64,000 nucleotides of DNA from a virus: IMG/VR virus record IMGVR_UViG_3300025141_000040, positions 1-64,000 of that record; one strand, 5' to 3'. The notes under the pieces are model-generated. The model ran no database searches. It saw only the letters and a list, made by a program, of their open reading frames with translations, and had not been told where the DNA came from. Position numbers and translations under genes: made by a program. This document shows, in pieces, positions 5,104 through 60,772 of this stretch (positions within the stretch are counted from its first letter, which is position 1; each line of letters begins with the position of its first letter).

Positions 5104-6228
5104 CTACTGCCCGTCCTCAATGTCAGAGAGCCAGGAGTCCACGTCCCAGGCGTCCTCGGCGCGCGGCGCTTCGGGCGTGGGTCGGGTGGTGGGCTCGGGT
5201 GCGTACACGGGCTCGGGCGGGCTCGCGGCCTCCTCTGCCTGCTTCGCCGCGTACTCGATCTTCGCGGCGCGGAGGCGACCGATGATCTCGGCGTCCTCGA
5301 TTGACCGGGACTCCTCCTCGATGCTGTTCGTGACGACGATCTCCACGTCGTCCTGCTCCCCGGTTGCTTCGTTCCAGGCACCGACCGCGACGACGATCCC
5401 CTCCTCGTCTGTCTCCGTGTCCACCACGCGCTGCCCCACGCTGTAGCCCTTCCAGGGCGGCGGGGGCGGCTTCGGCTTGTTCGGGTCCGGCTCCTCCTGC
5501 TCCTGGGTGAAGGGGTAGTAGTGCTCGGCGGTCAGGTTCCACGGCTGCGGCGGGTCCAGATCCTTGTCGGGGAACAGGAACCACTGAGGCATCGACACCG
5601 ACTCCTCGGGCCAGTCGTTCGTGGGGTACTTCGCGTCCTCCTGCCAGCCTTCCCATTCCTGGCGGGCGAGCCGCATCGCCTCCGTGTGGACCTCGGCCTT
5701 CGGGGAGGAGCGGAACCGCCAGTCCCGTTCGACCTCGGACACTTTCAGCACGGCCAGCTTCGCCAGGATCGGGTTGATCGGGACGATGTTCACCAGGGTC
5801 GAATTGATCTCGCAGTCGCCAGCGCAATTCCACCGGAAACCGTCCACGATCTGCGGGGGCGAGAGCTTGGACAGCACGCCCCTCTGGTACTCGCGCTCGC
5901 GCGGGAAGTGCTTGTAGAAGACGTGCAGGGACTCATGCAGGAACGTGATCCCAAACTCCCACAGCCCCATCCGGCCCTCGTACCGCGCGAAGAACATGGG
6001 GTTGTAGAGGAGGTACATATCCTCGGTCACCGCGAGGGTCGAGATCCGCTCCGTCTGGATCGGGGCGAACGCTCGCAGGAACACGCCCGTCCAGGGCAGC
6101 AGGTACTCGGCCCGCTGCCGCGCCGCACGGAAGTTGGCGGTCGCCGCGTCCGCGATCTCCTTGGGGATCGTTGTGGACGCGCGGCCCGCGTAGTCGGCGG
6201 CGGTCGGTCGGGGGGCAACGCTGCTCAT
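5104..6228 (-). CDS. Putative Zn metallopeptidase (DUF2201_N-like, HExxH) with Pro-rich linker and acidic C-terminal region
   Basis: HESLH in FGITFLHESLHVFYKH. GGAGA 7 nt upstream of ATG 6228. Gene context is MoxR ATPase plus VWA. Confidence 0.8.
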   Translation of the reverse strand: MSSVAPRPTAADYAGRASTTIPKEIADAATANFRAARQRAEYLLPWTGVFLRAFAPIQTERISTLAVTEDMYLLYNPMFFARYEGRMGLWEFGITFLHESLHVFYKHFPREREYQRGVLSKLSPPQIVDGFRWNCAGDCEINSTLVNIVPINPILAKLAVLKVSEVERDWRFRSSPKAEVHTEAMRLARQEWEGWQEDAKYPTNDWPEESVSMPQWFLFPDKDLDPPQPWNLTAEHYYPFTQEQEEPDPNKPKPPPPPWKGYSVGQRVVDTETDEEGIVVAVGAWNEATGEQDDVEIVVTNSIEEESRSIEDAEIIGRLRAAKIEYAAKQAEEAASPPEPVYAPEPTTRPTPEAPRAEDAWDVDSWLSDIEDGQ

Positions 6229-6270
6229 GGGGTGTCTCCGATAGGAAGGAACGAACGGGACGACTGTGGC

Positions 6271-6882
6271 TCAGTCAAGGTCAAGGCCCCAATCACCCAG
6301 GTCGTCCAACTCTGCCAGCAGCTTGTCCGCCTCCTCGTCCACCTGTGACAGACCGGGCTTCACGCGCAGCGTGGGTTCGTTCGCTGCCAGCAGAAGCTCG
6401 GTGCAGATCCTTCGCAGGATCTCCTGGGGGTACGGGTCGGGCGCATGGCCCCGGCCCTTCAGCACGCCCGTTGCCACGAAGTCCATCACGGTCGCCTCGG
6501 AGCGCAGGGCGTCCCGCACGTTGCCCGCGAACAGGGTGGACTCGGTGAGCACGTCACGGGCGGTCGGCAGAAACTCGATGCCGCTCTGCTTGAACGCGGC
6601 CTCCAGAAGCTCCGAGGCTTTCGCCTTGCCGCCCTGGACGGACATTGTGAGATCGCGGAACAGGACGCCGTAGGTGCTGTTGACGCGGAACACGAAGATC
6701 ACTTCGACGGGGATGCCGCGACGTGCGCGTGCCGCGAGGAAGGGCCGGGACATTGTGCCGTCCTTCACGGGGAGCGACCCGACACTGGCCCCGGCGAGCG
6801 GGCCTCCCTTGCGGTTGATGCGCCCCGACCCGCGCGTCGTTTCCGCCAGGAGCTTCCCGCCGTCTGCTTCGATGATCTTCAT
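6271..6882 (-). CDS. Hypothetical protein of the MoxR/VWA operon, ending in the acidic motif LDDLGDWGLDLD
   Basis: ATGA overlap with the ATPase stop (6879-6882). 203 aa with coding-like composition. Confidence 0.75.
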   Translation of the reverse strand: MKIIEADGGKLLAETTRGSGRINRKGGPLAGASVGSLPVKDGTMSRPFLAARARRGIPVEVIFVFRVNSTYGVLFRDLTMSVQGGKAKASELLEAAFKQSGIEFLPTARDVLTESTLFAGNVRDALRSEATVMDFVATGVLKGRGHAPDPYPQEILRRICTELLLAANEPTLRVKPGLSQVDEEADKLLAELDDLGDWGLDLD

Positions 6883-8381
6883 CGGTCCTGACCCTGCCTC
6901 GCGCCATGCAAGGCTTCGTCGCGCACCTTCTTGGTCAGGCTGATCAACTCAGCCATGACCAGCCGAATCAGCCCGATGACCTCCTGCCGGTTTCTCGGCG
7001 GCGCGGACCCGATGACGCGCTTCCCGCCGTCGTCGGAGCCCTGCCAATTCTTGTAGCCGAACAGGATGCCCTTCAGCATGGCCGAGTCCAGGGACGACTT
7101 CCCGAACGACTGAAGCGAGGCGCGCATCCCGTTCACCTGGGCCTGCATCTGCGTCAGGGGCAACTCGCGGTAGTAGTCGATGACGCTCTGCAACTGCGCG
7201 CCGCAGACTTCGGCCGGGGGGTTCGCCTTCAAGAACGCAGCCCGCGCCGTCGCGCTGGCGATGTAGTCGGCGGGCAGGACGGTCTGCGCTTCGATGGAGG
7301 CGTTGTGTGCGTTGAACGACGCACACGCCTCGGAGCCGATGGTGCCGCACACGATCTGGTCCGCGAGCTTGATCCGATCCACGTTCTCCACCCCTTCCAG
7401 GGAGAGTACGGCTGCGCGCCCACGCACGGCCAACTCCAAGGAGCGCGGCGACGGCCATGCGTACTGGTCGGTGAACAGGGTCGGCTGATCGACGCCCTTG
7501 GGCGTGCCCCGGTCGAGATCCGGGTTGTTCTTGTAGAACGTGCGGATCTTGGCGGCGGTCTTGGAGTCCGTCATCTTGAACAGGTATTGCCCGCCCTTTG
7601 CAGTGCGGACCCACGACGCCATTGCGTATGCGTACCGGCTGTACTGCCGGTAAAACTCGCCCATGTTCAACTTCGGCCACGCCTGCTTGTCGGCGGCGGT
7701 CGTACTCAGGGCCTCGGTGGCGCTGATCCAGTTGGCCCACTGATCCACGCTCGGCGGCTTCCAGAACAGGTGGATGAAGCGGTTGGCGACCGGCTCGGAG
7801 AGGTTCGACCCACCGGGGGCCATTGACGGCGGGTTCGCAGCGGCGACCACGACGACGTTGGGGGGCAGCGGGAGATCACCGACGACGCGCTCGTGGATCA
7901 CGCGGAGCATCGCGGCCTGCACGTCGTCCTGGGCGGTCGTAAACTCGTCAAAGAACACGGCCGCGCGAGGGCTGGTGGGATCGAGCGGCTTCCCGCCAAG
8001 GGCGCGGGCCTTGGCCTCAATCGCCCAATCCGGGGGCGCGAAGGACAGGACAGGGAACGCACCCTTGTCGGTCTTCTCGGCGGGGAGCGCCTTGTTCCCC
8101 TCGATCTTCATGTACGCGCCGGGAACCGGAATCCCCAGGAAGTCGGACGCACCGCGCACGGACGCGAGGACCGTGATCGGGTCTTCGCCCTTCGGCACGA
8201 ATCCCAGGGCCTTCAGCATCTTGTTGACCTGGGAGGTCTTGCCGACACCGGGCGCACCCCACAGCATGACCGGCAACCCGAGCACGGTCCCCTCGATACC
8301 GGGGGCCTGTAGCGCGGCGGCAACCATGAGCAGGATATTGTTGTTGTCCTTGTTCGACACGGCGAAGGGGGAAGTTGACAT
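6879..8381 (-). CDS. MoxR-like AAA+ ATPase (AAA_5 type)
   Basis: Walker A is GAPGVGKTS and Walker B is AVFFDEFT. Start chosen at ATG 8381 (MSTSPFAV...) with GAGGA upstream. Confidence 0.9.
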   Translation of the reverse strand: MSTSPFAVSNKDNNNILLMVAAALQAPGIEGTVLGLPVMLWGAPGVGKTSQVNKMLKALGFVPKGEDPITVLASVRGASDFLGIPVPGAYMKIEGNKALPAEKTDKGAFPVLSFAPPDWAIEAKARALGGKPLDPTSPRAAVFFDEFTTAQDDVQAAMLRVIHERVVGDLPLPPNVVVVAAANPPSMAPGGSNLSEPVANRFIHLFWKPPSVDQWANWISATEALSTTAADKQAWPKLNMGEFYRQYSRYAYAMASWVRTAKGGQYLFKMTDSKTAAKIRTFYKNNPDLDRGTPKGVDQPTLFTDQYAWPSPRSLELAVRGRAAVLSLEGVENVDRIKLADQIVCGTIGSEACASFNAHNASIEAQTVLPADYIASATARAAFLKANPPAEVCGAQLQSVIDYYRELPLTQMQAQVNGMRASLQSFGKSSLDSAMLKGILFGYKNWQGSDDGGKRVIGSAPPRNRQEVIGLIRLVMAELISLTKKVRDEALHGARQGQDR

Positions 8382-8476
8382 TCTGGTCCTCAATGAGCAG
8401 GGGGGACCAGCACGGCCCCTCTCACGCACGCGAGCGCGTGGGTGACGAAACGCCGTTATCCTACTGCATCCAGCCT

Positions 8477-8507
8477 GCGCGGGGGCACCCGACTTGCGCC
8501 CCCGCGC
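8477..8507 (-). terminator. GC-rich hairpin (10-bp perfect stem GCGCGGGGGC / GCCCCCGCGC) downstream of gene 8523..9608
   Basis: Stem read directly from the sequence. No U-tract follows. Confidence 0.35.
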
Positions 8508-8522
8508 GTGCGCGCGTGTTCC

Positions 8523-9648: not shown

Positions 9649-9677
9649 ACCCTAAGTCACCCTTGCCTAACTGTCAA
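9649..9677 (-). promoter_or_regulatory. Promoter TTGACA-N17-TAGGGT for gene 8523..9608
   Basis: Exact consensus -35 and a TAnnnT -10, about 40 nt upstream of ATG 9608. Confidence 0.5.
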
Positions 9678-9720
9678 GCCAAGCGATTCTATGCGCCTTT
9701 CCGCGCGTCCGCGCGTGCTG

Positions 9721-9770
9721 TTCGATGCCGTTCGATGCCGTTCGATGCCGTTCGATGCCGTTCGGTGCGG
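9721..9770. repeat. Tandem 10-bp repeat (TTCGATGCCG x4 plus degenerate TTCGGTGCGG), iteron/operator-like
   Basis: Four perfect copies. The array lies midway between the divergent promoters at 9649-9677 and 9814-9842. The period equals one helical turn. Confidence 0.8.
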
Positions 9771-9813
9771 CTCCGGGGGCGCACTTCGTTATCAGTATGT
9801 CCGCTTTCCATAT

Positions 9814-9970: not shown

Positions 9971-11065
9971 GTGAAGCGCGTCTACCTCGATCACAACGCC
10001 ACCGCCCCTCTCCTCGCGTGCGCGCGAGAAGCTATGGCGCGGTGCTGCGATGGGAATCCTGACTCCGACCATGCCGAAGGCCGACGTGCGAAAGCGGCCG
10101 TGGAGGGGGCGCGCAGTCACGTCGCTCGCCTCATTGGTGCAGACCCCGGTGAGATCATCTTCACCAGCGGCGGAACGGAGGCGGACAACATGGCCCTGCT
10201 TGGAGTCGGCGGGACGCCGATGATCTCGGCGGTGGAGCACAAGGCCGTGCTCGTACCCGCGACCGACCTTGACGGGCGCGTCCTCCCGGTGGACAGCCTG
10301 GGGCGGTTGAACCTGGGCGAAGTCGAGCAGGCTGTTCGCAGACACCGCCCTGCCCTGGTCAGCGTCATGCAGGCGAACAACGAGATCGGGAATCTCTACC
10401 CGGTGGGACGCATCGCGCGCATCGCGCACGGCTACGGAGCCCTCTGCCACACCGACGCGGTGAACGCGCTCGGCAAGATCCCCGTCAACGTCCACGCCCT
10501 CGGGGTGGACCTCGCCAGCTTCAGCGCGCACAAGATCGGCGGTCCCAAGGGAGTCGGTGCGCTCTACGTTCGTGCGGGCCTCGACCTCCCGGCCTTGGTA
10601 CGCGGGGGCGGGCAGGAGTCCGGCCACCGGGCAGGGACGCCGAACGTCCCCGGCATCGTGGGCTTCGGTGCCGCCGCCTACTCGATGTGGCGGTTCCTGC
10701 GGCGGGACGGGTCCACCCTGCTCGGGCAGCATCGGGATGCGCTGGAACGCGGCGTCCTCCGGCACGTCCAGGGCTCTCAGGTTGTCGGGAACACGCGCGC
10801 AGGCGGGCGGCTCCCGAACACGACGACCATCGCGTTCGCCGGGGTCAAGCCCACCGACCTCGTACACGCGCTGGACCGACTCGGGGTCGCCGCGTCCTCG
10901 GGCTCGGCCTGCGGCTGCAAGAATCCCGGCCCGTCCCACGTTCTGAAGGCAATCGGCTGCACGGGGGCCGTCCGGTTCTCCTGCGGGCCGGGAACCACGC
11001 ACGGGGCCGTGAGATCCGCCGTGGGCGCAATCAGCGAATCCGTCGAAGGGCTACGCAGTCGATGA
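9971..11065 (+). CDS. Cysteine desulfurase (NifS/IscS family, class V aminotransferase)
   Basis: VYLDHNATAP N-terminus. PLP lysine lies in SFSAHKIGGPKG and the catalytic Cys in ASSGSACG. GC3 is low upstream of GTG 9971, so the 34-codon track extension is rejected. Confidence 0.9.
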   Translation: MKRVYLDHNATAPLLACAREAMARCCDGNPDSDHAEGRRAKAAVEGARSHVARLIGADPGEIIFTSGGTEADNMALLGVGGTPMISAVEHKAVLVPATDLDGRVLPVDSLGRLNLGEVEQAVRRHRPALVSVMQANNEIGNLYPVGRIARIAHGYGALCHTDAVNALGKIPVNVHALGVDLASFSAHKIGGPKGVGALYVRAGLDLPALVRGGGQESGHRAGTPNVPGIVGFGAAAYSMWRFLRRDGSTLLGQHRDALERGVLRHVQGSQVVGNTRAGGRLPNTTTIAFAGVKPTDLVHALDRLGVAASSGSACGCKNPGPSHVLKAIGCTGAVRFSCGPGTTHGAVRSAVGAISESVEGLRSR

Positions 11066-11067
11066 CC
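11040..11067 (+). repeat. 28-nt start-site cassette, copy 1 (CCGTCGAAGGGCTACGCAGTCGATGACC)
   Basis: Contains the nifS-like TGA and the giant-ORF ATG. Confidence 0.9.
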
Positions 11068-14000
11068 GCTTCCCCTCTACGGGTCGAGCATTCGGGCACC
11101 CAGGACTTCCCCGCGTGCCCCGCAGGTTGGACAACGGACGGCTGGCCGTTCTTTGAGGACTACGCCGACGACTGGGACGAGCCCTGGAACCACCCCGGCA
11201 TCTGGCACGTCACGACCGCCGCCGAGGAGGTAGCGCAGGACGGTCGCCTGCTCTCGCGCCGTGAGCTTGCCGCGAAGGGGATCACGACGGCGGGCTTGGG
11301 CGGTGGCACGGCAAACGTCGCCTCCAGCAAGATCAGCGTGACCACGAATCCGCACGCCGCGCAACGGGTCTACCGAACGATGCAGATCGCAGCCCTGGCC
11401 GCACAGAACCGGCTCCCTGCTTGGCGGGTCGCAGCCGAGGCACTGAAGTCCAGCAGGGTTGAGGATCTGCTCTACGAGGTCGCAGAACGTGACACCTACT
11501 TGTGGGAGGCGCAGGGTGACCGTGAGGATGATGCGGCGCGGCTCCGCGACGATCTAGCCAATCTGCTCGACGTTGGCACCGAGGATGCCGTCGCCACGCC
11601 CCAGGAGCTTCGTGCCGCTGCGAACGCGCTGGAACGGACCTTCTACAACGGAGAGGCCAAGTATGGCTTGCTCCAGTCCATCGAGGCTATCGGCACCGAG
11701 GCGCACCAGTACGTCATCGAGTCCAACGAGAGCGCGGTCGCCCCGGTCGGCTTCACGGAATCGTGGTCGAAGTGGGCAAAGGTCAACCCCCGGAACATTC
11801 GCCTCCTCCGGCTCGCCGCGTGCCCCGGTGCGCGCGTGAGGATTGAGCCTTCCGAGTCCGAGCTTCGGTTCGACCCCAAGGATCTGCGTGTCGTCGGCGT
11901 CGAGTCGTTGAAAGGACTCACGAACCTTACAGAAGCCCCCAAGAAGCTACGGCTGCGGAACCCCGCCCGTCGAAGGACTACGAAGTCGATGACCACAACT
12001 ACGCCAACCCCATCGACACTGCCGTCCGACTCGCTGCCGCCGACCAAGCCCCGTGAGATCCTCGCAGCGCACGGGATCGGGGTGGGCGACGTGGTGACAG
12101 CCGTGTTTCGGGGGGCGACCGTCTCCGGTGTTGTAAGGAAGATCAACCCAACGTCGGTCTTCGTTGGACAGCTTCAGTGGCCGGACAGCTACACCAACAA
12201 GCGGTGGGACAAGATTTCGATCCCGCCTCACGACATTGAGGGCATCGAGGCCCCGGACTACGAGGTCGATTTCCTGCGACACGCCCACCACTTCGGGCTG
12301 GCCGCAGGCGACCTGGGGCGGGAGTTTCCGATCCATAACACGACCTTCCGCGTCGTCGGGCTCAACATCGCTCTCAAAGATCCCGTCCTGATTCGTCAGG
12401 TAGGGGGGTCCACCGTCCAAGGCCCTGTCTTTCGTCACGGTGCCGCACAGATCGCGGCGGCGCTTTCAACCATCGACCGTCGAAGGACTACGAAGTCAAT
12501 GACCGACCCAAGACCCGTGCAGTCGTCAAGCGCCCCGCAGATCCCCGCCGAGTCCGACCTCACCTGGGTCGCAGGCAGGCACCGCAGGGGCTACAACCCG
12601 CACTACCCCGTGGATCGGGCCACCCTCCCGAACGGCGGCGAAGTCATGCGGGCAGGCAGCGCGGGTCGCCTCTACCCCCCGTACCAGATCAGCCGGTTCC
12701 CTGGCGTCGAGCGCAGGCGGTTCTCAGAGAGCACGTTCGCGGACGCCTACGCCGCAGCCCTGGCCGCGCAGGCAGCAGCCGCCCCCTCCAAGCCCCTCGC
12801 GGATCTCCCCGCCGATCTCTCGGCCGGTCTGAAGCGCGCGATCAAGGGCGCGTACCCGAAGTCGGCCAAGGAAGCGAAGCTGGTCCTGACGCACCTGGGC
12901 GTTGGCATCATCCCGTTCAAGCAGGGTCGGAAGTTGATGGGCTACGACCTCGCGCTCCCCGAGGGCGCGGGCCTGGGCTTCGACTACTACTCCCCCCGGT
13001 CCTCGCGCTCCCGTGGGATCGACAAGACCGCGCTGTGGGGGCAGGGCTACACGTCCGACCCGGAGGCGGAAGCCGCCCGCCTGATCTTCATGGAGTGGCT
13101 GAAGAACGCCGCCGCCGTGGCCTTGGGCGGCGACGTTGCCGAGAAGCTGGCGCGCAAGGCGCAGGGACTCCCGATGGAGGCCCGGAGCGCCGACCCGGCC
13201 GTGCGGACGTGCGGCGCGTGCTGGCGGGACATAAAGGCGACTGCGACGAAGTTTCAAGGCGGGCGTGACCCCGCAGGGCACCGCCACGGCACCAACCTCT
13301 ACCTCGTAGATCACGGCTACACGATCAAGTGGGGCCGCACGGGATCGTGCCCCGGAGTGGCGACCCTCCCTTGGGAGGAGTCCGACGAAGCCGCACGGTT
13401 GGAGATCACCGCGCTCCTGTCGGTCAGCACCCACGTCACCGCCGAATGGCGGAAGTGGACGGGCTTTGTCGAGCAGTACGACGCCGGGAACACCAAGGGC
13501 CTCCCCGGTATCCCGAAGCGGGGCGACCGCACTTCGCCCTACGGCGTCAAGCCCGTCGAGTACGAGGAGATCATCCTGCGCCCCACGGGCGACACCAAGT
13601 ACGAGTGGCGGGACAAGGCCGCGTATGCCGAGGCCGACGCCCTCCGTTTCCTGCGGGACAAGCTCTGGTCAAAGCACTTCGGGTCCATCCCCTACATGCG
13701 CGCAGCCCTGCGTGAGTGGGAGCCGCAAGCCGCCGACGTGGTTCCGGCCAAGGGTCCGCCCTGGATCAAGGCGTTCCAGCCCGAGGACTTCGCCGGGAAC
13801 CCGTTGGCTGGCGACGACGACCCGAGCGCCCCCGAGCCGGAGCCCGAGCCGGAGCCCGAGCCGACGCCCGAGCCCCTGCCCGCCCCGGCCCCCACGCCTG
13901 CCCCGGCCCCGCCCCCGCCCGAAGGAACCCCGCTCCAACTGCGGCTCGCGGTGCTGTGGCGCGGCGCGAAGCCCCCCGAGAAGATGCCCCGGTGGATCAC

Positions 14001-17000
14001 CAACCTCCGAGGGAAGGGGCCGAAGCGCGCGTTCCGCGATCTGAAGATGGACGTGCTGATGCCCTACGCGGACGCCGTTCAACTGTTCACCCCGGAAGGG
14101 CTGACGGATCTGAGCGACAAGGTGGACGCCCGCATCGCCACCGAAGCTGCGAAGCTCAAATGGGACCGTGGCTACCTCCTGCGCGCCACGGTGTCCGTGC
14201 CGAACCTGATCCACAATGACACCGGACGCAGGCGAGCCCTGTTCACCCGCGACTACTGGCACGACAAGATCAGCGCCGATCTGAAGCGGGGCGGGTGGAT
14301 CGTGGGCCGAACGGCCCTGGGTCGGCCGCTCTACGAGTTTGTGTTGCAGGATCACGCCACGGCCGAGCCCACACCCCCTACACCGCCTGCTCCTGCCCCG
14401 GCAGTCGAGGAGCCCCCCACTATGCCCGCCACCGCCTCGTTCGACTACCCCATCGATCCCACGGAAACGTCCCGCACCGAGGCGTGGTTCCGTGCGTTGT
14501 TCAACGCCTACGACGGGCAGCTTGACCAGCCGTTCCTGGCGACCGCGATGAAGTCGCAGTTTCCGCGCCTGGGGAAGCCGAACGTGCTCGCCACGTTCAC
14601 GCAGCTTCGCGGGTCGAACCAGATCGTGAAGGGTGAGGGAGCCGCGTGGATCTGGCCGGACCTCCTCCCGGCCGCGCAGGACGACAAGCTGCTGGCCGAC
14701 CTGGGCGTGGCGACCGGGGGCGGAAACAACGAAGACCTCGCCGCGCTGGACGTGGATGACCCCGAGCACCCCGAGCTTCCCGAGCTTCCCGAGCCCGTGA
14801 CCCCCGCGCCCTCTGGCCCACGGCCTGCTCCGGCTCCCCCGGATGAAGGCTTGACCGAGCACCCCGACCCGACCGCAGCGCCCGCGCTCCCCATGCCGTT
14901 CACCCCGCTCCCCGGCGTGACGTGGGTGGACCCCGCGCTCTACGGCTGGACGTGGCTGGAAGGGCCGCACAACACCAGCCTGACGCTGCGTCCGTGGGGC
15001 AACGCGCCCGACTCTTTCATGGTGGTCGAATCGCTCGCGGGCGAGGACGTGGGGCAGTCCTACTTCACCAAGAACGGCGTGCAGGGATCGGCCCCTGGTG
15101 GCAAGGCAGCGGCCTACGCTCACATGGAGGAGTTGGCTCGCAGCCTCGCGGCCGTGACCCCCGCGCACACGGGCTCCGCGACCCCGACCCCCGCCCGTCC
15201 GGCCGTGCCCTTCGCCAACAACGAGATACCGGACGTGGTGTCGATGGCGAAGGGAAAAGTGGGCGACGGCTGGCCCTTCCCGATCAGTGCGGACGTGTCC
15301 GGCATCGTCAGCAAGGTCGGGCGCAGGCAATGGCTGGTGAAGCCGATCAAGGAACAACCGTACGAGATCCCACGCATCGGAGGCACCGCCACGGGCGCAA
15401 AGACCGCGAACAGTGCCTCCGATGCGTGGGATCTCGTACAGGAGTTGATCACGCACGGCGGCGTGTGGGCCTCCGGGTGGACGCCCCAGGTGTCCGGCGA
15501 TCCCCACCGTACCGAGTGGCAGAACGCGGCGGGCTCCGAGGACGTGTGGGTCGAGCCCTGGACCGATTCGTGGATCGGGGTGGAAACCGGCACGCCGGGG
15601 TCGCAGTACCCCGACGCCTGGACGGTCGGCCACAACCCTCGCTACCAGACCGACTCCACGACGAAGTGGTACTTCAACGAGAACGGGAAGGGGGTCGCCC
15701 CCGGTTCCATGATGGGCCACAGCAACGGGGACCGCAGCACGACGCCGCGCTCCGGTGGCGCGCAAGCCGCCGCCGACTTCCTGATGCAGACGTGGAGGAT
15801 CGCCTGGACGCCCGGTGCGTACCCGCAGCCCGCGCCCCCGACTCCGGCCCCGCCGCAGCCCACGCCGCCGACTCCCGCGAAGCCGGGACGACCGACGACG
15901 CAGGCCGAGCTTCTGCGCCGGATGGTGGTGTTCCTGACGGACACCGCCGACAAGATGGAGGACGGCACCGTCACCGCCGCCCGAATGAAGGGGCTGGAAC
16001 GCCTGCTCGACGGTGCGTGGGACGCGCTGATGAAGCTGCCCCCCGCCGCCCCGCGCAAGGGGAACCGCAGGCGGAACCCCGGCCCCCGCAGGCGGAACCC
16101 GTCGTCGCCCGAGGGCGAGCCGTGGCAATGGGACGCCCGCCGCCGCGTGGAGGCCGCGTTCAAGGCGAAGTACGGAGTGGACCCGCTGCCCGCAGGTGAC
16201 CCCCGGATCAGCCAGTACACCGCGCCCTGGTTCCCGGTGTTCCACCTTCCGCGCCACCTGTTCCGGGCGCAGTATTACGACAAGCCCCTGTCGCGGACCC
16301 TCGGCAAGCTGTCGCTCCACAAGGAGGACTTGCCCGACAAGAGCTTCCTGCTCACCGCCGTCTTCCGGTCGCCATTCCCGGCGTTCCCTCCCGGTCGGCT
16401 GATCACGCTCGACGGTCGCGTGGGGTTCATCCAGAGGCAACCGGAGATCCGGCACTCCACCCACTACGGCAAGGACGGCAAGGGCGTGGCCGTCGAGACA
16501 TTCGACAACTTCTATCACGTCGGTTGGGACACGGGCATCGACTACAAGGTGCCGCCCGAGGCCCTGGCCGGGGCGACCTTGGTGCCCCTCGCGGACGCCT
16601 CCGACTTCGTTCCGGGCAAGGTGGTCTGGTCATTTGGAGGCCCGCAGCGCATCGAGCGCGTGAACACGACCCGGTACAACGGCTTGAAGAACGTGGAGAC
16701 TCCCGACCCCGAGGACTGGACGCTCTACTTCGTCGGCGGCGGTAGCTCCCTGGTTGGCCGTGATGGGCCGTCGAAGGTTCCTGCCGGAACCACCGTCACG
16801 CTGCTCCCCTCAAACGACCAGATCGTGCGCGTGATCTCCGGCCCCCACACCGGGTTGGTCGGCATCGTGAAGGCGGCGTCCGCCGCCTCCCTGACGCTCC
16901 GACTGCGCCCCTCGTACAGCCTGCGCCCGGTGCTCTCCCAGGTGGACGTGACCCTGACGGCCCCGGCGAACGGCGACTGGTGGACCGTGGTGGAACCGCT

Positions 17001-17256
17001 CACCGCCACCGAGTACCCGGAGTTGCACGCGGAAGTCCTGTCATGGACGAACGTGTACGAGAACGGCCAGTGGTTCATCGGGACCGTGACGGACAACGAC
17101 GCCGAGGGCAGCGACGACGACCGTGCGTACCGGGACGCGCACCTGATCGTGGAGGCTGCGGACGACCGCCGCCGCCGCTGGTTGGTGCAGCGGGTGTACC
17201 CGATCACCCGAGCCGAGTACAACACGACGCTGGCCTACATCGACCAGCACGGCTGA
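11062..17256 (+). CDS. Giant multidomain ORFan (2064 aa) with Pro/Ala/Thr linkers, translationally coupled to the cysteine desulfurase
   Basis: ATG 11062 overlaps the nifS-like TGA (ATGA). Open frame of 6.2 kb. PEPEPEPEPTPEP and PAPAP linkers separate the modules. I recognised no catalytic motif. Confidence 0.85.
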   Translation: MTASPLRVEHSGTQDFPACPAGWTTDGWPFFEDYADDWDEPWNHPGIWHVTTAAEEVAQDGRLLSRRELAAKGITTAGLGGGTANVASSKISVTTNPHAAQRVYRTMQIAALAAQNRLPAWRVAAEALKSSRVEDLLYEVAERDTYLWEAQGDREDDAARLRDDLANLLDVGTEDAVATPQELRAAANALERTFYNGEAKYGLLQSIEAIGTEAHQYVIESNESAVAPVGFTESWSKWAKVNPRNIRLLRLAACPGARVRIEPSESELRFDPKDLRVVGVESLKGLTNLTEAPKKLRLRNPARRRTTKSMTTTTPTPSTLPSDSLPPTKPREILAAHGIGVGDVVTAVFRGATVSGVVRKINPTSVFVGQLQWPDSYTNKRWDKISIPPHDIEGIEAPDYEVDFLRHAHHFGLAAGDLGREFPIHNTTFRVVGLNIALKDPVLIRQVGGSTVQGPVFRHGAAQIAAALSTIDRRRTTKSMTDPRPVQSSSAPQIPAESDLTWVAGRHRRGYNPHYPVDRATLPNGGEVMRAGSAGRLYPPYQISRFPGVERRRFSESTFADAYAAALAAQAAAAPSKPLADLPADLSAGLKRAIKGAYPKSAKEAKLVLTHLGVGIIPFKQGRKLMGYDLALPEGAGLGFDYYSPRSSRSRGIDKTALWGQGYTSDPEAEAARLIFMEWLKNAAAVALGGDVAEKLARKAQGLPMEARSADPAVRTCGACWRDIKATATKFQGGRDPAGHRHGTNLYLVDHGYTIKWGRTGSCPGVATLPWEESDEAARLEITALLSVSTHVTAEWRKWTGFVEQYDAGNTKGLPGIPKRGDRTSPYGVKPVEYEEIILRPTGDTKYEWRDKAAYAEADALRFLRDKLWSKHFGSIPYMRAALREWEPQAADVVPAKGPPWIKAFQPEDFAGNPLAGDDDPSAPEPEPEPEPEPTPEPLPAPAPTPAPAPPPPEGTPLQLRLAVLWRGAKPPEKMPRWITNLRGKGPKRAFRDLKMDVLMPYADAVQLFTPEGLTDLSDKVDARIATEAAKLKWDRGYLLRATVSVPNLIHNDTGRRRALFTRDYWHDKISADLKRGGWIVGRTALGRPLYEFVLQDHATAEPTPPTPPAPAPAVEEPPTMPATASFDYPIDPTETSRTEAWFRALFNAYDGQLDQPFLATAMKSQFPRLGKPNVLATFTQLRGSNQIVKGEGAAWIWPDLLPAAQDDKLLADLGVATGGGNNEDLAALDVDDPEHPELPELPEPVTPAPSGPRPAPAPPDEGLTEHPDPTAAPALPMPFTPLPGVTWVDPALYGWTWLEGPHNTSLTLRPWGNAPDSFMVVESLAGEDVGQSYFTKNGVQGSAPGGKAAAYAHMEELARSLAAVTPAHTGSATPTPARPAVPFANNEIPDVVSMAKGKVGDGWPFPISADVSGIVSKVGRRQWLVKPIKEQPYEIPRIGGTATGAKTANSASDAWDLVQELITHGGVWASGWTPQVSGDPHRTEWQNAAGSEDVWVEPWTDSWIGVETGTPGSQYPDAWTVGHNPRYQTDSTTKWYFNENGKGVAPGSMMGHSNGDRSTTPRSGGAQAAADFLMQTWRIAWTPGAYPQPAPPTPAPPQPTPPTPAKPGRPTTQAELLRRMVVFLTDTADKMEDGTVTAARMKGLERLLDGAWDALMKLPPAAPRKGNRRRNPGPRRRNPSSPEGEPWQWDARRRVEAAFKAKYGVDPLPAGDPRISQYTAPWFPVFHLPRHLFRAQYYDKPLSRTLGKLSLHKEDLPDKSFLLTAVFRSPFPAFPPGRLITLDGRVGFIQRQPEIRHSTHYGKDGKGVAVETFDNFYHVGWDTGIDYKVPPEALAGATLVPLADASDFVPGKVVWSFGGPQRIERVNTTRYNGLKNVETPDPEDWTLYFVGGGSSLVGRDGPSKVPAGTTVTLLPSNDQIVRVISGPHTGLVGIVKAASAASLTLRLRPSYSLRPVLSQVDVTLTAPANGDWWTVVEPLTATEYPELHAEVLSWTNVYENGQWFIGTVTDNDAEGSDDDRAYRDAHLIVEAADDRRRRWLVQRVYPITRAEYNTTLAYIDQHG
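11967..11994 (+). repeat. 28-nt start-site cassette, copy 2 (CCGTCGAAGGACTACGAAGTCGATGACC)
   Basis: In frame inside the giant ORF (RRRTTKSMT). Confidence 0.9.
12477..12504 (+). repeat. 28-nt start-site cassette, copy 3 (CCGTCGAAGGACTACGAAGTCAATGACC)
   Basis: In frame inside the giant ORF (RRRTTKSMT). Confidence 0.9.
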
Positions 17257-17259
17257 TCC

Positions 17260-17667
17260 TCAGACCCGGCGCAGGATCTCCGGCAGGCCCCGATGGAGTC
17301 GGTCGGAGGTCAACGCCTCCTCCGGCGTGATCCAGGCCCACCCGGAGGACTCCCACTGGATCGTGGGAATCCGCACCTGGGGCACGGTCACGATGACGGT
17401 GGTGTAGCAGGACTCCCGGCCGGACCTCTTGGTTCGGCAGCGCCGCATCCGGCCGACGATCTGCCCCTCCCACGCCAGGAGATCGGCTCCGGCCTCCTCG
17501 CGGGCTTCCCGCAGGGCCGCGTCCACGGGTGTCTCGCCCGGATCGACCCGGCCTCCCGGCAGGTTCCACAGTCCAGGGTGCTTGACCCGTTCGGAACGCT
17601 GAAGCAGGAGGACTTGCCTCCCAGGCGCAACGAACAGGACGCCTGCGACCTCGCGGGGCCGCGTCAC
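17260..17667 (-). CDS. Nudix hydrolase
   Basis: Complete Nudix box: GRVDPGE-TPVDAAL-REAREEAGA (Gx5Ex7REUxEExGU). Confidence 0.9.
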   Translation of the reverse strand: MTRPREVAGVLFVAPGRQVLLLQRSERVKHPGLWNLPGGRVDPGETPVDAALREAREEAGADLLAWEGQIVGRMRRCRTKRSGRESCYTTVIVTVPQVRIPTIQWESSGWAWITPEEALTSDRLHRGLPEILRRV

Positions 17668-17709
17668 GCGCTCTTTCTGGTCACCGCGAACCTCGCAGTC
17701 TCAGAGTGC

Positions 17710-41747: not shown

Positions 41748-43439
41748 ATGAGTCCGACCCCCCGCGCACCTGACGGCTACCACTACCTCGGTGTGGCACC
41801 CGTTGAGATCGACGCGGGGGGTCGCGCCCATGTTTCCCGAGAAAACCTCCGGTTCGCACCGGAGTTTGGCGGCGCAGCCGCCACGAAAGGCTCTGGCGTT
41901 ATGGGAATCATCGGCAATGCACTCGGGGGAACCCTCGACTTCCTTTCTGGAAACCCGGATGCTGACGCGGACGGCGATCTGGCCGACGATTTCGGCGGGG
42001 ACAACGCCAGCGTGGTCCGTGCCTGGATGAAGGGCAAGTACGCGCAGTCCGGCACGATGCGGACGGACGGCACGAACCTCTGGTCCTACGCGCTGCTGAT
42101 CGGCACGACGGACGGCAGCGGCGGGAAGGTGGTCTACAACCACCGTTCCAGTCAGACCACCAACCGCCACATCAACCTCGCTCGGCAGTACGCCCACGCG
42201 ACCCTGCCCGCACCGTTCGGCGGCAACCCCGATGCTGACGCGGACGGCGATCTCGCGGACGACTTCGGGGACGAGCACTACGAAGACTTCGGCAAGCGGA
42301 AGCGGCGGAAGCGGCGGAAGCGGAAGCGCGGCAAGCGGCGAGCGCCCAAGGCCCTGTCCCCCAAGGTGGTCAAGCAGAAGCTCGGTAAGCACCTTAAAGG
42401 CAAGAAGTGGACGAAGGGCGACAAGCTCTACATCACCTTCGCCGCCAGCCTAAACAAGAAGCAAGCCGCCAAGGTCGCGGGCAGGAGGCTGAAGAAGAAG
42501 GGGATCAAGTACGAGGGCGGGATCTCCCTGTACCTGTACGGCGTGTTCCCCGCGCCCCCCTTCTTCCCCCTCCCTCCCCTTACCCCCATTGGCCTCTGGC
42601 GAGCCCAGGTCGGGCGACCGGGTTCCACGGCGAAGGCCGTCCAGTCGGCCAAGGCCAGCAAGGGCGGCGGCAAGGGCGACAGCATCGTGCCGGAGCCCGC
42701 GCAGGGTGCGCTGAAGTCGATCCCCGGCCGGGAAGGCGGCAACGTCACCCCCGATTGGGCGCAGGACCACCTCACCCCCGATGCGGGTGGTGGTGGCGGC
42801 GGTGGCGGCGAGGACGCTGCGGTCGAGGCGCGGTATCAGTCCGCGATCCAGCGGCTCCTGGCCGACGAGTTTGGCCTCGCGTTCGTGGACCTCTCGGGAG
42901 ACGGACAAATGGACGACTACGACGACTTCGGTGACGACGACTACGACGACTTCGGTGACGACGACTACGACGACTTCGGCAGCGATGACGAGTACATCGA
43001 CCTCGGCAGCGATGACGATTTCGATGACTTCAGCCGCAAGATGCTGACGAAGCCGCAGGGTGGCGGTCGGAAGCGGCGCAGCAGCGGTCGGAAGCGGCGC
43101 AGCAGCGGTCGGAAGCGGCGCAGCAGCGGTCGGAAGCGACCTACATCGCGCCCGCGTGCGTGCCTCCGGTTCAAGCGGAGTCCCGCCCGCCGACTGCTCG
43201 GCGCGATCCACCGTGCGTGGCGGGCGGAAGCGGGCGTCGGACGCGGAAAACTGAGCCAACGACACAAGGCGGCGTGGATCTCCTACATGGTGAGCTACAC
43301 GCCACAGAGCAAGGACGAGGAGCGCATGAAGCGTGGATTCCTCCGCTGCCAGAAGGCGCTCGGGAACCTCCCGAGTACGAGTACGGGTGGTGACCCCTAC
43401 GCCAGCTACCTCGGTGGCGGCTGCGGGTGCGGCCGGTAG
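41748..43439 (+). CDS. Repeat-rich ORFan (563 aa) with alternating acidic and poly-Arg/Lys blocks
   Basis: GGGAGA 5 nt upstream. Repeats: GNPDADADGDLADDFG x2, KRKRRKRRKRKRGKRR, DDYDDFGD x3, GRKRRSS x3.5. Confidence 0.8.
   Translation: MSPTPRAPDGYHYLGVAPVEIDAGGRAHVSRENLRFAPEFGGAAATKGSGVMGIIGNALGGTLDFLSGNPDADADGDLADDFGGDNASVVRAWMKGKYAQSGTMRTDGTNLWSYALLIGTTDGSGGKVVYNHRSSQTTNRHINLARQYAHATLPAPFGGNPDADADGDLADDFGDEHYEDFGKRKRRKRRKRKRGKRRAPKALSPKVVKQKLGKHLKGKKWTKGDKLYITFAASLNKKQAAKVAGRRLKKKGIKYEGGISLYLYGVFPAPPFFPLPPLTPIGLWRAQVGRPGSTAKAVQSAKASKGGGKGDSIVPEPAQGALKSIPGREGGNVTPDWAQDHLTPDAGGGGGGGGEDAAVEARYQSAIQRLLADEFGLAFVDLSGDGQMDDYDDFGDDDYDDFGDDDYDDFGSDDEYIDLGSDDDFDDFSRKMLTKPQGGGRKRRSSGRKRRSSGRKRRSSGRKRPTSRPRACLRFKRSPARRLLGAIHRAWRAEAGVGRGKLSQRHKAAWISYMVSYTPQSKDEERMKRGFLRCQKALGNLPSTSTGGDPYASYLGGGCGCGR
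42912..42983 (+). repeat. Tandem 24-bp coding repeat x3 (DDYDDFGD)
   Basis: GACGACTACGACGACTTCGGTGAC repeated. The third copy ends GGCAGC. Confidence 0.9.
43065..43139 (+). repeat. Tandem 21-bp coding repeat x3.5 (GRKRRSS)
   Basis: GGTCGGAAGCGGCGCAGCAGC in three perfect copies plus a partial fourth. Confidence 0.9.
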
Positions 43440-43456
43440 AACAACGAGAGAACCCG

Positions 43457-43473
43457 AGGCGGGTGGTCCGCCT
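43457..43473 (+). terminator. Hairpin AGGCGG-GTGGT-CCGCCT after gene 41748..43439
   Basis: 6-bp stem located 18 nt after the stop. Confidence 0.3.
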
Positions 43474-43625
43474 TCGGGGCGCGCGAACAGCGGCCTGCGT
43501 GGCTGCGAAAAGGAACCCGAACCGTGGCTGAAGCGTACAGGCGAATCTACTCCAATTCGGAGGGATACCTGCACATCGGAAGCCCCGCTTTCGGGGGAAA
43601 CACCGCAATCGCGGGAGGCAGACAA

Positions 43626-44291
43626 ATGGACTACGACGACTACGACGACTTCGGACTGGATCTGGTGGACGACGATCTCGGCTACGACGACTTCGACGGC
43701 GACTACGAAGATTTTGAGGACGACGACTTCCTGGGCGAGATGGACTACGCCTCCCTCGGCGCGATGGACTACGCCTCCCTGGGCGACGACGACGACGACG
43801 ACGACGAGGACGACCTCGGGCGTCGGCGGCGACGGCGGCGACGGCGCGGTCGGAAGCGGCGCAGGACACGCGGTCGGAAGCGGCGTCGTCCCTCCAAGCG
43901 GCGGGCGCGTCCCGCGAAGGCAAAGGCCCAGGTGGTTCAGAAGACGATCCTCACCGGCAACGTGCTCCTCGACAACACGGCGGGCACGATCACGATCCGC
44001 CCGCAGTTTGACTTCGTGGCCGAGGACGTGACGTTCATCGCGGTCACGGCGGCTCAGTGGACGGTCACCGGCATCCAGTTTGGAGATCGCATCGTGTTCT
44101 CCAACCCCACCGGAGTCCCCATCGCGGTGTTCGCCGTCGCGGGCTTCATGCGCGGACTCGTCAAGGGTGCGGCAATCGCGGCTGGCCTGGACATTCAGTT
44201 GTCCGTCGTCACGACCACGACCGAAACCCTCACGGCGGTCTTCACCGGGCTGAAGCGCGGAACGACCGGCTGCGGGCCGGGAGCCGTCTAG
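43626..44291 (+). CDS. Acidic-arm / poly-Arg-arm / beta-rich C-domain protein, paralogue 1
   Basis: GGGAGG 7 nt upstream of ATG 43626. The track extension from 43524 has only about 65% GC3 and rare codons. The C-domain is shared with gene 44435..45118 and ends in the same GLKRGTTGCGPGAV. Confidence 0.8.
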   Translation: MDYDDYDDFGLDLVDDDLGYDDFDGDYEDFEDDDFLGEMDYASLGAMDYASLGDDDDDDDEDDLGRRRRRRRRRGRKRRRTRGRKRRRPSKRRARPAKAKAQVVQKTILTGNVLLDNTAGTITIRPQFDFVAEDVTFIAVTAAQWTVTGIQFGDRIVFSNPTGVPIAVFAVAGFMRGLVKGAAIAAGLDIQLSVVTTTTETLTAVFTGLKRGTTGCGPGAV

Positions 44292-44297
44292 CCACCA

Positions 44298-44375
44298 AGG
44301 CGGTCGCCACGCCCCTTCGGGGGTAGATCGCCTGCCAGAATCGGAAAGCGCGGGGTCGAATGGTCGGCCCCGCGC
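44298..44375 (+). terminator. Two hairpins after paralogue 1: a CCCC-TTC-GGGG core (44312-44323) inside an imperfect longer stem, then GCGCGGGG-N12-CCCCGCGC (44348-44375)
   Basis: Stems read directly. No U-tract. Confidence 0.35.
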
Positions 44376-44434
44376 GCTCCGCAACCCCCCCACGGGACGC
44401 GAGCCGTCCCCCTGACGCTCTGAAGGAGCACACA

Positions 44435-45118
44435 ATGGACGACTTTGGCCTCGATCTCGTGGACGATGACCTCGGCGCGATGGACTACGCCAGCCTCGGC
44501 GGCTACATCGACTTCGGTGATGACGACGACGACGACGATGACTTCGGCATCGACTACTACGACTTCGGTGATGATGACGACGACGACGACGACGACGACC
44601 TCGGACGCCGCCGCCGCCGCCGCGCCAAGCGGGGACGCCGCCGTCGCCGCCGGGGAGGCGGTTCCCGTCGCCGCGCCAAGCGGCCCTCCAAGCGGCCCGC
44701 CGCCAAGAAGGCCCAGGTGGTGCAGAAGACCATGCTCGTCGGCACGACCGGCCCGCAGATCCTCGGCGCGTGGAACATCACGATCCGCCCACAGTTTGAC
44801 TTCGTGGCAGAGGATCTGACCTTCTCGGGTTCGATCATGGGCTCCAACGCGGGCGGTGTTCCGGGCGTGTGGTCGATCACGGGCATCCAGTTTGGCGACC
44901 GGATCGTCTTCAGCAACCCGGTCGGCGTCCCGGTTGCGATCTTCGTGGTCGGCGGGTTCATGCGTGGGCTGGTGAAGGGCGCGGCCATTGCGGCCGGACT
45001 CGACATTATGATCAACGCGGTCCTGACCAACGCGAACGCGACGACCCCCGGCACGCTGACCGCCACGTTCTCCGGGCTGAAGCGCGGCACCACGGGCTGC
45101 GGCCCCGGCGCGGTCTAG
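44435..45118 (+). CDS. Acidic-arm / poly-Arg-arm / beta-rich C-domain protein, paralogue 2
   Basis: GAAGGAG 6 nt upstream of ATG 44435. MDDFGLDLVDDDLG...GRRRRRRAKRGRRRRRR..., then ITIRPQFDFVAED...GIQFGDRIVFSNP...GFMRGLVKGAAIAAGLDI. Confidence 0.8.
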   Translation: MDDFGLDLVDDDLGAMDYASLGGYIDFGDDDDDDDDFGIDYYDFGDDDDDDDDDDLGRRRRRRAKRGRRRRRRGGGSRRRAKRPSKRPAAKKAQVVQKTMLVGTTGPQILGAWNITIRPQFDFVAEDLTFSGSIMGSNAGGVPGVWSITGIQFGDRIVFSNPVGVPVAIFVVGGFMRGLVKGAAIAAGLDIMINAVLTNANATTPGTLTATFSGLKRGTTGCGPGAV

Positions 45119-60400: not shown

Positions 60401-60772
60401 GCAGGCACCGTCGCCTACCGCTTCACCTACGCGAGCGAGATCACGGGCCTGTCGATGGAGATCACCGGGGCGCTCCCCCTGGCCGACTTCATCCGGGGCG
60501 GGTCGGTGTCCGAAGCCGTGATGGACAAGGCCGAGGACGAAGGCTGGTTCGCCACGCCGGAGTTGTCCGTCGAGGAGGTCGAGGCGGTCGAGGCGGTCGA
60601 GGGCACGCTGGACGAGGACTGGTTCCAGGGGATGCTGGCCGATATGGTCAAGTCCACGAAAGACGAGCTTCGCAAGACGATCTCTGCGGGCACCCTCATG
60701 GGGACCGAAGACGGTGCGAAGAAAAAGAAGAAGCGCAAGACGGCCAAGCCCGTCCCCGAGGTTCACGCATGA
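57476..60772 (+). CDS. Large ORFan (1098 aa), helical Ala/Leu/Glu-rich N-half
   Basis: AGGAG 8 nt upstream of ATG 57476. Ends in KKKKKRKTAKP. The stop overlaps the next ATG. Confidence 0.85.
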   Translation: MADGPQGDFRRLVSAVGFLRKLRKSPLFTLLPVKSQDVIGKLVAAMTNEALTALRPDPAAVAVRVAALEPRAAAFKAAVVKATDRLRAAGWNLADPSEQATLRRATRPALITIYTDNLGPEQVSISPSGELRRIGTVAPPAPPVTPGKIVPAANEGTALAFLRGVSHALKQEELSYSADQADEIIERLGDDYYDTEDELRIIVQEGVTDSVADSAGDLVAEADEWTDVADLPGSERQHALDEASKLVADAARIRPLGRGFYENALVVYRAVKARNRLSTAPLTMTALAAANEALADARCTGEERDHARAMLGAAESRLRAALLAGDFSPTGGDGDHAHYEDEDDYGDPRNVEEELQDADPHLRIAVTNAISIAESCGAGQTGLFTERVREEITRTRARFPADLPERINDAAGGLTTLAESVNLGAVVRLEAAAHYANVQGGPRVAQGLLKLANAQSFVLDPAYKDTAAASAALVKAAKDDGLGAPEQRKLAQDFATALPATTIKAATDLRRVVEQITTDCGAAVDLEAPKVPLRAALHAYIARDDKTARLNVRKAVDLMVAQLLTAVRVSGLPAPYFALPTDLTDTDVADLPAGIVDLPPSPAAIQAESERIEREDVPPQPTPQPTDPGTEPAPPEPTPTVAAVVPTLSDLKTYIETAGGNEAEAKRMVMAAFSGWWNSSEFHAAVQSYIRDLVSAPSAVFSIYRTQAPASADFSDGVLTDQTHDLSGAPDTNQPPGTDQWRRVAIPTNRVNDQVTAYTRAGGRTLSADQYLMQHGGAAGRPPEPLSSEGRPPSGEPAEGLYFIEDVDDGYSVSIDSEAYGALLYGGGTLLLSAGRDEDTVTNDFGTVYLRHDIDADRYLVSDDRDFAAVQTIPPQVTGFLAELERQRIADCATSVCVSTIIGVEGEEGGVTLRMIEQGLIANLDTWADDLGVALQTVFTNVGVGITDTEATARFVEDGSAAGDATVTGSVNHTEAGTVAYRFTYASEITGLSMEITGALPLADFIRGGSVSEAVMDKAEDEGWFATPELSVEEVEAVEAVEGTLDEDWFQGMLADMVKSTKDELRKTISAGTLMGTEDGAKKKKKRKTAKPVPEVHA

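Follow-up and report, generated by a model that had tools for sequence, protein, structure and literature searches.

In phages lambda (C/Nu3) and T7 (4A/4B), pairs of genes are nested in frame, with internal starts that are conserved and have been shown experimentally, and in the CdiA polymorphic toxins a widespread, conserved peptide, VENN, read in one frame, bounds the constant part of the protein against interchangeable modules and can serve as the homology by which these are swapped. Two further systems come from mycobacteriophages. The Island3 genome holds an inserted gene that Brujita lacks, and this gene ends in a second copy of about 50 bp from the 3' end of another gene (PMC3029335). 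In the Cluster K phages, the SAS and ESAS elements are conserved asymmetric sequences that lie directly upstream of an ATG, overlap the Shine-Dalgarno sequence and sometimes take in the upstream stop codon; SAS is 13 bp long, is present in 11-19 copies across the non-structural half of the genome at 3-7 bp from the start, and is conserved across subclusters before unrelated genes (PMC3203893). The locus described here, which touches on each of these systems, lies in positions 1 to 64,000 of the IMG/VR virus record IMGVR_UViG_3300025141_000040, a stretch of 64,000 nucleotides (nt) referred to as the window, to which all coordinates refer unless another contig is named. A 28-nt junction repeat, J, stands there at the boundary between a cysteine desulfurase gene and an open reading frame (ORF) of 2064 codons (11062-17256), and occurs twice more inside that ORF. 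J originates from the 3' end of the desulfurase gene, and it is likely that recombination at this short repeat stacked two modules before a third and fused what had been separate genes into one ORF.

The repeat (CCGTCGAAGGRCTACGMAGTCRATGACC) is present in three copies, all in direct orientation and within 1.5 kb of one another (Table 1). Copies 1 and 2 are identical at 26 of 28 positions, copies 2 and 3 at 27 and copies 1 and 3 at 25; with three mismatches permitted, none of 100 dinucleotide-preserving shuffles gave a match. The similarity stops abruptly at 28 nt, and the flanks of the three copies are mutually unrelated (z < 2). Each copy holds an ATG (at 11062, 11989 and 12499), preceded at 12 nt by GAAGG(G/A), which covers the Shine-Dalgarno position. 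At copy 1 the desulfurase stop codon (TGA, 11063-11065) overlaps the ATG of the long ORF as ATGA, and at copies 2 and 3 the ATGs fall in frame 0 of that ORF and the repeat is read straight through as RRRTTKS-MT. On the positions of the copies, the ATGA overlap, the read-through of copies 2 and 3 and the GAAGG before each ATG, the first-pass annotation of this DNA was borne out, as it was for the sizes of the first two modules into which the copies cut the ORF, 309 and 170 amino acids; the third has 1585 rather than the 1586 it gave. It had also described the codons of RRRTTKS as rare in a genome with third-position G+C (GC3) near 90%. Their rarity stands (CGT accounts for 11% of Arg codons, CGA for 10% and AGG for 4%, while ACT accounts for 4% of Thr codons), but the GC3 of the ORF is 0.83. 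An assembly artefact was ruled out as the source of the array, since five independent assemblies from different samples carry the identical three copies.

The source of the repeat is to be found in the gene upstream, whose ORF is open from 9869 and has a VYLDHNAT motif downstream of the GTG at 9971. The left part of J consists of the last 22 nt of the desulfurase gene and its stop, while ATGACC comes from the next gene, and in the desulfurase frame all three copies read VEGLRS(R/Q) and then TGA. The desulfurase of the window ends in AISESVEGLRSR, those of related phages in AVTRAVAGLRR and AVREAVGELRRG, each directly before the stop codon; three variants are known, at 100%, 89% and 78% identity, and two related phages in all. 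The C-terminus ESVEGLRSR aligns with the VVERLRS, IVGRLRS and TVERLRS of cellular IscS/NifS-type enzymes, and this alignment identifies VEGLRSR as the terminal helix that cysteine desulfurases conserve. Native coding sequence is thus what copy 1 consists of, and copies 2 and 3 are ectopic duplicates of that gene junction. Copies 1 and 2 differ at two third positions of the desulfurase frame (GGG to GGA and CGC to CGA), and neither change alters the amino acid. The first-pass annotation had taken the nucleotide string, rather than the peptide, to be under constraint. Descent from the desulfurase 3' end explains the observations better: the rare codons and the sharing of nucleotides without a shared peptide arise because that 3' end was copied into another frame, and neither they nor the identity of the copies needs a selected signal. 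A degenerate scan for the conserved desulfurase 3' region found no further distribution.

Beyond this locus the repeat could not be traced. With up to 8 mismatches allowed, no fourth copy was found in about 84 kb of the genome (the window together with contigs L002 and L005), the single homologous junction of the related contig L007 is accompanied by no internal copy, and pattern scans of viral, metagenome and genome collections gave none either. J was considered as a genome-wide start signal and rejected, because its three copies in about 84 kb are confined to one locus and other genes start behind GGAG-type sites 4-8 nt upstream. Like SAS, it is placed right before an ATG, over the Shine-Dalgarno position; unlike SAS, it has three copies at one locus, two of them inside an ORF, and is not conserved in relatives. 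A transposon-like (MPME-like) unit was ruled out for want of terminal inverted repeats, and no inverted repeats were found flanking J or bounding modules 1 or 2. Searches of J yielded no consistent or significant RNA fold, no Rfam match and no match to a promoter or terminator.

What the locus looks like without the insert is seen in relatives, for which L007 and L008 (protein P0006) and a third, JGI 3300072015 (via its protein P0002), were compared. In L007 and L008 the order is desulfurase, ATGA overlap, the 1602-amino-acid P0006 and NUDIX, and both modules 1 and 2 and the internal copies of J are absent. Nucleotide identity between the window and L007 is about 85% (82-87% in the blocks flanking the locus); by blastn the homology ends at 11028 and restarts at 12540. 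The left flank of copy 1 matches L007 (z = 26), and so does the right flank of copy 3 (z = 7); none of the remaining flanks has a match. Direct repeats bound the variable segments, and the genome that lacks them has one homologous junction with matching outer flanks. That junction reads GGTCGCGGGGCTGCGGCGATGAAG and matches J at 18 of 28 positions with a 3-nt indel. The first-pass annotation expected the 28-mer to be conserved at equivalent sites in related genomes, and it is not, either here or in P0002, which reads RKRNPAPM where the window has RRRTTKSM, with the Met present in both. P0002 (1158 amino acids) is itself an in-frame fusion of module 1, an unrelated kinase-like module and a region like part of the protein encoded by the 2064-codon ORF. 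Its residues 11-311 are module 1 at 67% identity, up to LRLRNPTRKRNPAPM, and its end region is 38% identical to window residues 1142-1664. The breakpoint of this mosaic against the window coincides with copy 2 of J, and a second junction in P0002 reads RKRNPAPD, without a Met.

The arrangement resembles that of Island3 gp67/gp68 against Brujita. In both, the inserted gene ends in a copy of the upstream gene's 3' end, and a relative lacks the insert and the second copy; in both, the event inferred is recombination over tens of base pairs, with insertion and deletion indistinguishable. The differences are that J is 28 nt long, includes the start codon of the next gene and occurs three in a row, and that its extra copies lie in another frame, which removes the stop and makes the inserted genes part of one ORF rather than genes on their own.

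Table 1. Coordinates of the junction repeat J, the modules it delimits and the features on either side, numbered along the window.
Feature	Position	Strand	Description
Cysteine desulfurase gene (Aminotran_5)	9971..11065	+	Pfam E = 1.9e-64; probable start GTG 9971
J copy 1	11040..11067	+	native; desulfurase 3' end VEGLRSR and stop, ATGA overlap, ATGACC of the next gene
Module 1	11062..11988	+	309 codons; uncharacterised domain family
J copy 2	11967..11994	+	ectopic; frame 0 (A)RRRTTKS-MT; TGA out of frame
Module 2	11989..12498	+	170 codons; GC3 0.76
J copy 3	12477..12504	+	ectopic; (D)RRRTTKS-MT; right flank runs into homology with the module 3 start of L007
Module 3	12499..17256	+	1585 codons and stop; orthologue of free-standing P0006 (L007, L008)
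Arg-rich linker RRRNPGPRRRNP in module 3	16066..16107	+	14-nt DNA tandem CGCAGGCGGAACCC x2; not a J copy
NUDIX gene	17260..17700	-	right syntenic anchor common to all three related phages

Whether the units bounded by J exist as genes of their own, as the annotation had asked, can be answered in the affirmative for modules 1 and 3. Module 1 has more than 100 representative homologues, most of them free-standing proteins of 260-300 amino acids (e.g., P0008, P0009, P0010 and P0012), and two such standalone genes (L009 and L010) sit within ordinary, tightly packed operons. Where copy 2 of J starts, these free-standing proteins finish in an Arg-rich tail (RLRLGRRRQAR or RLHLGRVNRRR before the stop). 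Module 3 is an orthologue of P0006, with ORF residues 479-938 aligned to P0006 residues 10-473 at 78% identity. It is built of gene-sized domains joined by Pro-rich linkers, and its residues 572-915 are found elsewhere as separate proteins of 300-430 amino acids. For module 2 no homologue was found: an exhaustive profile search with ORF residues 1-1200 as the query gave 168 matches (E up to 0.001), and none of the best 150 has its best stretch in residues 310-479. It has no Pfam or PHROG family either.

No activity was assigned to any of the modules by Pfam, PHROGs or PDB sequence searches. Module 1 gave no Pfam match and no significant neighbour in PDB or BFVD, the best in BFVD being a MuF-domain protein (E = 0.07), and protein-based locus searches with it found nothing. 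An alignment-based AlphaFold2 model of module 1 has a predicted local distance difference test score (pLDDT) of 90, with a low-confidence and probably disordered tail; a single-sequence AlphaFold model of residues 1-533 (pLDDT 32) was uninformative. The residues H49, R66, GLGGG (78-82), S92, Y201 and E265-x-E267 are conserved in module 1, a pattern that suggests an enzyme. An R-S-ExE ADP-ribosyltransferase was considered on account of the conserved R, S and ExE, and nothing confirmed it. The module 1 domain is also part of some giant proteins of the polyvalent type; in one of these it aligns to residues 1777-1871 of P0146, which has 3858 amino acids and carries ART-PolyVal (E = 7e-58), KTSC and NUDIX domains.

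In its general build the ORF recalls the polyvalent proteins, which are likewise very large phage proteins of gene-sized domains also found alone, with extensive mosaicism between close relatives (PMC5512222), and its module 1 domain is shared with the ART-PolyVal-bearing P0146. It differs in that no domain of known activity was identified in it, and duplicated start junctions serving as joints are not described in the literature consulted on that group (PMC5512222). Module 3 is itself mosaic between phages: about 300 nt (15168-15473) is present in the window only and about 280 nt (11412-11690 of L007) in L007 only, each with an extra domain. The homology to P0002 finishes just before the RRRNPGPRRRNP linker at 16066. 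Between the domains of module 3, 12-nt tandem repeats encode Pro/Glu-rich low-complexity linkers (PEPEPEPEPEPTPEPLPAPAP, at 13831-13907). All three related phages carry Arg-rich R[RK]xNP peptides where modules meet or genes start, namely LRLRNPARRR (11950-11976) and RRRNPGPRRRNP (16066-16107) in the window, MKRNPKPP (10001-10025) in L007 and RKRNPAP twice in P0002 (residues 300-311 and 520-535). These may act as linkers, as tails that bind nucleic acid or as sites of processing.

From this evidence we infer the direction of the event, the recombination mechanism and the nature of the products as follows. The ancestral order was likely desulfurase, ATGA overlap and module 3 as a separate gene, as in L007. 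Recombination would have put two gene-sized modules in between, with J left or used at each boundary, to give J-module 1-J-module 2-J-module 3. One illegitimate join would have created the first internal J, possibly aided by microhomology between CGTCGAAGG in J and the CGN-CGN-AGG codons of the Arg-rich tail of module 1, and an unequal homologous exchange within the 28-nt repeat would have produced the second internal copy with identical boundaries. The internal copies are shifted by one base relative to the desulfurase frame; the TGA is thus passed over, J is translated as RRRTTKS-M-T and the three units are joined as one ORF of 2064 codons. Of the explanations offered by the first-pass annotation, a three-gene operon fused through loss of frame offsets comes closest to this; modules 1 and 3 bear it out as separate genes elsewhere, and for module 2 no homologue was found. 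The copies of J match one another at 25-27 of 28 positions as against 18 of 28 with an indel to L007, which makes the duplications recent compared with the divergence of the two phages. The lower GC3 of module 1 (0.80) and module 2, compared with the desulfurase (0.87) and module 3 (0.86-0.91), is consistent with later acquisition, and together with the youth of the copies it favours insertion over deletion. The locus is accordingly a variant of the mosaicism already known in phages and not a novel kind of element.

Several observations weigh against this history. Its direction is unproven, as a window-like ancestor would give exactly the L007 arrangement if its copies 1 and 3 recombined. Copies 2 and 3 have an identical left boundary, unlike what two independent illegitimate events would leave, so that a homology-driven or site-directed step must be assumed. 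Both internal junctions are in frame, for which the chance is about 1/9, and P0002 is an in-frame fusion as well, which hints at selection for fusion or read-through instead of pure accident. The internal ATGs lie in unusually weak mRNA folds and are followed by rare codons ending in A or T, and for this reason they may still act as starts. Finally, since module 2 lacks a homologue, its former independence is presumed.

The weak folds and rare codons at the internal ATGs bear on whether copies 2 and 3 have been kept as ribosome binding sites, so that nested C-coterminal products from M310 (modules 2 and 3) and M480 (module 3) would be made beside the 2064-amino-acid fusion. Such internal initiation, the first of the functions proposed from the repeat, is compatible with the duplication history and differs from it only in claiming a present function; it is possible, yet we regard it as doubtful, and nothing in the analysis demands it. 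Copy 1 is the sole initiation region available for the ORF, and over positions -22 to +6 copies 2 and 3 match it at 25-26 of 28 positions. Pairing of the copies with the anti-Shine-Dalgarno sequence (-6.2 to -7.1 kcal/mol) comes near the -7.45 that is the median for 50 annotated starts, the mRNA around copies 2 and 3 (-11.2 and -8.9 kcal/mol) folds 2.0 and 2.5 standard deviations more weakly than internal positions do (-21.1 +/- 4.9), codons 2-12 after the internal ATGs are enriched for rare codons ending in A or T (8/22, p = 0.004), and the Met at the junction after module 1 recurs in P0002. Set against this, the spacing from Shine-Dalgarno to start is 10-12 nt at J and 4-8 nt as is typical of the genome, 19-30% of internal decoy ATG and GTG codons pair equally well or better, and the second junction of P0002 has no Met. 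Copy 1 is probably helped by termination and reinitiation at the ATGA, a route closed to copies 2 and 3 by their out-of-frame TGA. Start-like features would be expected in any case of true gene starts captured recently, and the 28-mer is not kept in the relatives. As in lambda C/Nu3 and T7 4A/4B, an ATG preceded by a Shine-Dalgarno-like element lies in frame within a longer ORF, which gives the potential for C-coterminal products; the putative internal starts at J differ in being young duplicates of sub-optimal spacing.

The identical, sharp 28-nt boundaries of the three copies, their direct orientation throughout a J-module-J-module-J layout, the exact re-creation of the L007 arrangement by a copy 1 x copy 3 exchange, and the mosaic breakpoints that fall at J against both relatives would all suit a dedicated recombination site, or "module socket", at which a phage recombinase or single-strand annealing protein inserts, stacks and excises effector modules. 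This is nonetheless unlikely: J is found at this locus only in about 84 kb and is absent from three public collections scanned, no recombinase or integrase was detected nearby, the repeat has neither internal dyad symmetry nor the flanking inverted repeats typical of recombinase sites, and all five assemblies carry the full array with no deletion variants among them. It is similarly improbable that J is an active portable socket that combines a translation start region with recombination homology, its modules made both in the fusion and from their own starts; were it so, the socket would be a concrete mechanism for the assembly and diversification of polyvalent proteins, with effector genes stacked, swapped and dropped before a large injected protein. 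The VENN sequence of CdiA is comparable insofar as a short shared sequence marks the boundary of modules, but J is a nucleotide string read in two frames and is limited to one lineage. Very unlikely, too, is the suggestion that RRRTTKS/MT is a repeated polyprotein processing site at which a phage or host protease frees the modules. Arg-rich R[RK]xNP-type peptides are indeed repeated where modules meet in all three phages, proteolytic processing is possible in large multidomain phage proteins (PMC5512222), and the tail of module 1 is probably disordered in the predicted model, but RRRTTKS is frame-shifted desulfurase coding sequence that is not conserved (RKRNPAP stands there in P0002), and no protease domain was found in the ORF. 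An Arg-rich tail is the natural C-terminus of free-standing module 1 proteins, and for that reason the RRR belongs to module 1 and is not a site; J lends the processing idea no support, because its peptide is a by-product of frame. Recoding is scarcely credible. Were the ribosome to shift by +1 within J, it would meet the TGA in frame; modules 1 and 2 would then end in VEGLRS(R/Q), with the following module restarting at the ATG that overlaps the stop, as at copy 1. In the +1 frame every copy does end in a TGA overlapping an ATG, with the rare codons CGA and AGG within the repeat; J, however, has no slippery sequence that would allow the P-site tRNA to re-pair and no stimulatory structure, and the homology to P0002 shows frame 0 read into J to at least R305.

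The window belongs to a phage-like genome of about 105.7 kb that is known solely from metagenomes. By megablast no GenBank phage was similar to the window, and most genes of the genome had no match in PHROGs. Among the genes that can be recognised are those for ribonucleotide reductase, Dam methylase, a PD-(D/E)XK nuclease, an SNF2 helicase, primase, NUDIX and an AAA_5 ATPase, with an M15 peptidase gene just beyond the window edge. The desulfurase gene lies near genes for a MoxR-like AAA_5 ATPase and a DUF2201 metallopeptidase-like protein (5104-8522, minus strand), an unusual auxiliary set whose synteny extends to all three relatives. The desulfurase and the minus-strand gene ending at 9656 are divergent, and in the intergenic region between them a 10-nt sequence (TGCCGTTCGA) is repeated in tandem about five times (9716-9773), which may be a regulatory or protein-binding array. 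On the other side of the locus, L007 differs from the window by one more indel: it has a Muramidase-domain gene beside NUDIX (15214-15990 of L007), and the corresponding place in the window has none. Further along, two adjacent paralogous genes (43440-44291 and 44327-45118) share blocks of about 73-86% identity and long acidic, Asp-rich repeats, and a 21-nt tandem array is found at 43049-43144. A second giant gene begins at 60769 on the plus strand and runs through position 64000 into L005 (15173-21779); it encodes 3569 amino acids in L005, with a weak Helicase_C match, and in the part covered it holds no J-like repeats or RRNP motifs.

It is an old question whether the joints of phage mosaics are made by homologous exchange at short boundary sequences or by illegitimate recombination (PMC3029335). 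The locus is a clean natural case in which to look at it, as a 28-nt boundary repeat of traced origin is present three times, a sister genome has the single junction and module 1 is free-standing elsewhere. If the history proposed here is right, the source populations should hold deletion variants that arose by recombination between copies of J. The one-base offset in a duplicated ATGA junction would turn the insertion of a gene into a fusion, a plausible route by which the giant multi-module proteins of phages may grow.

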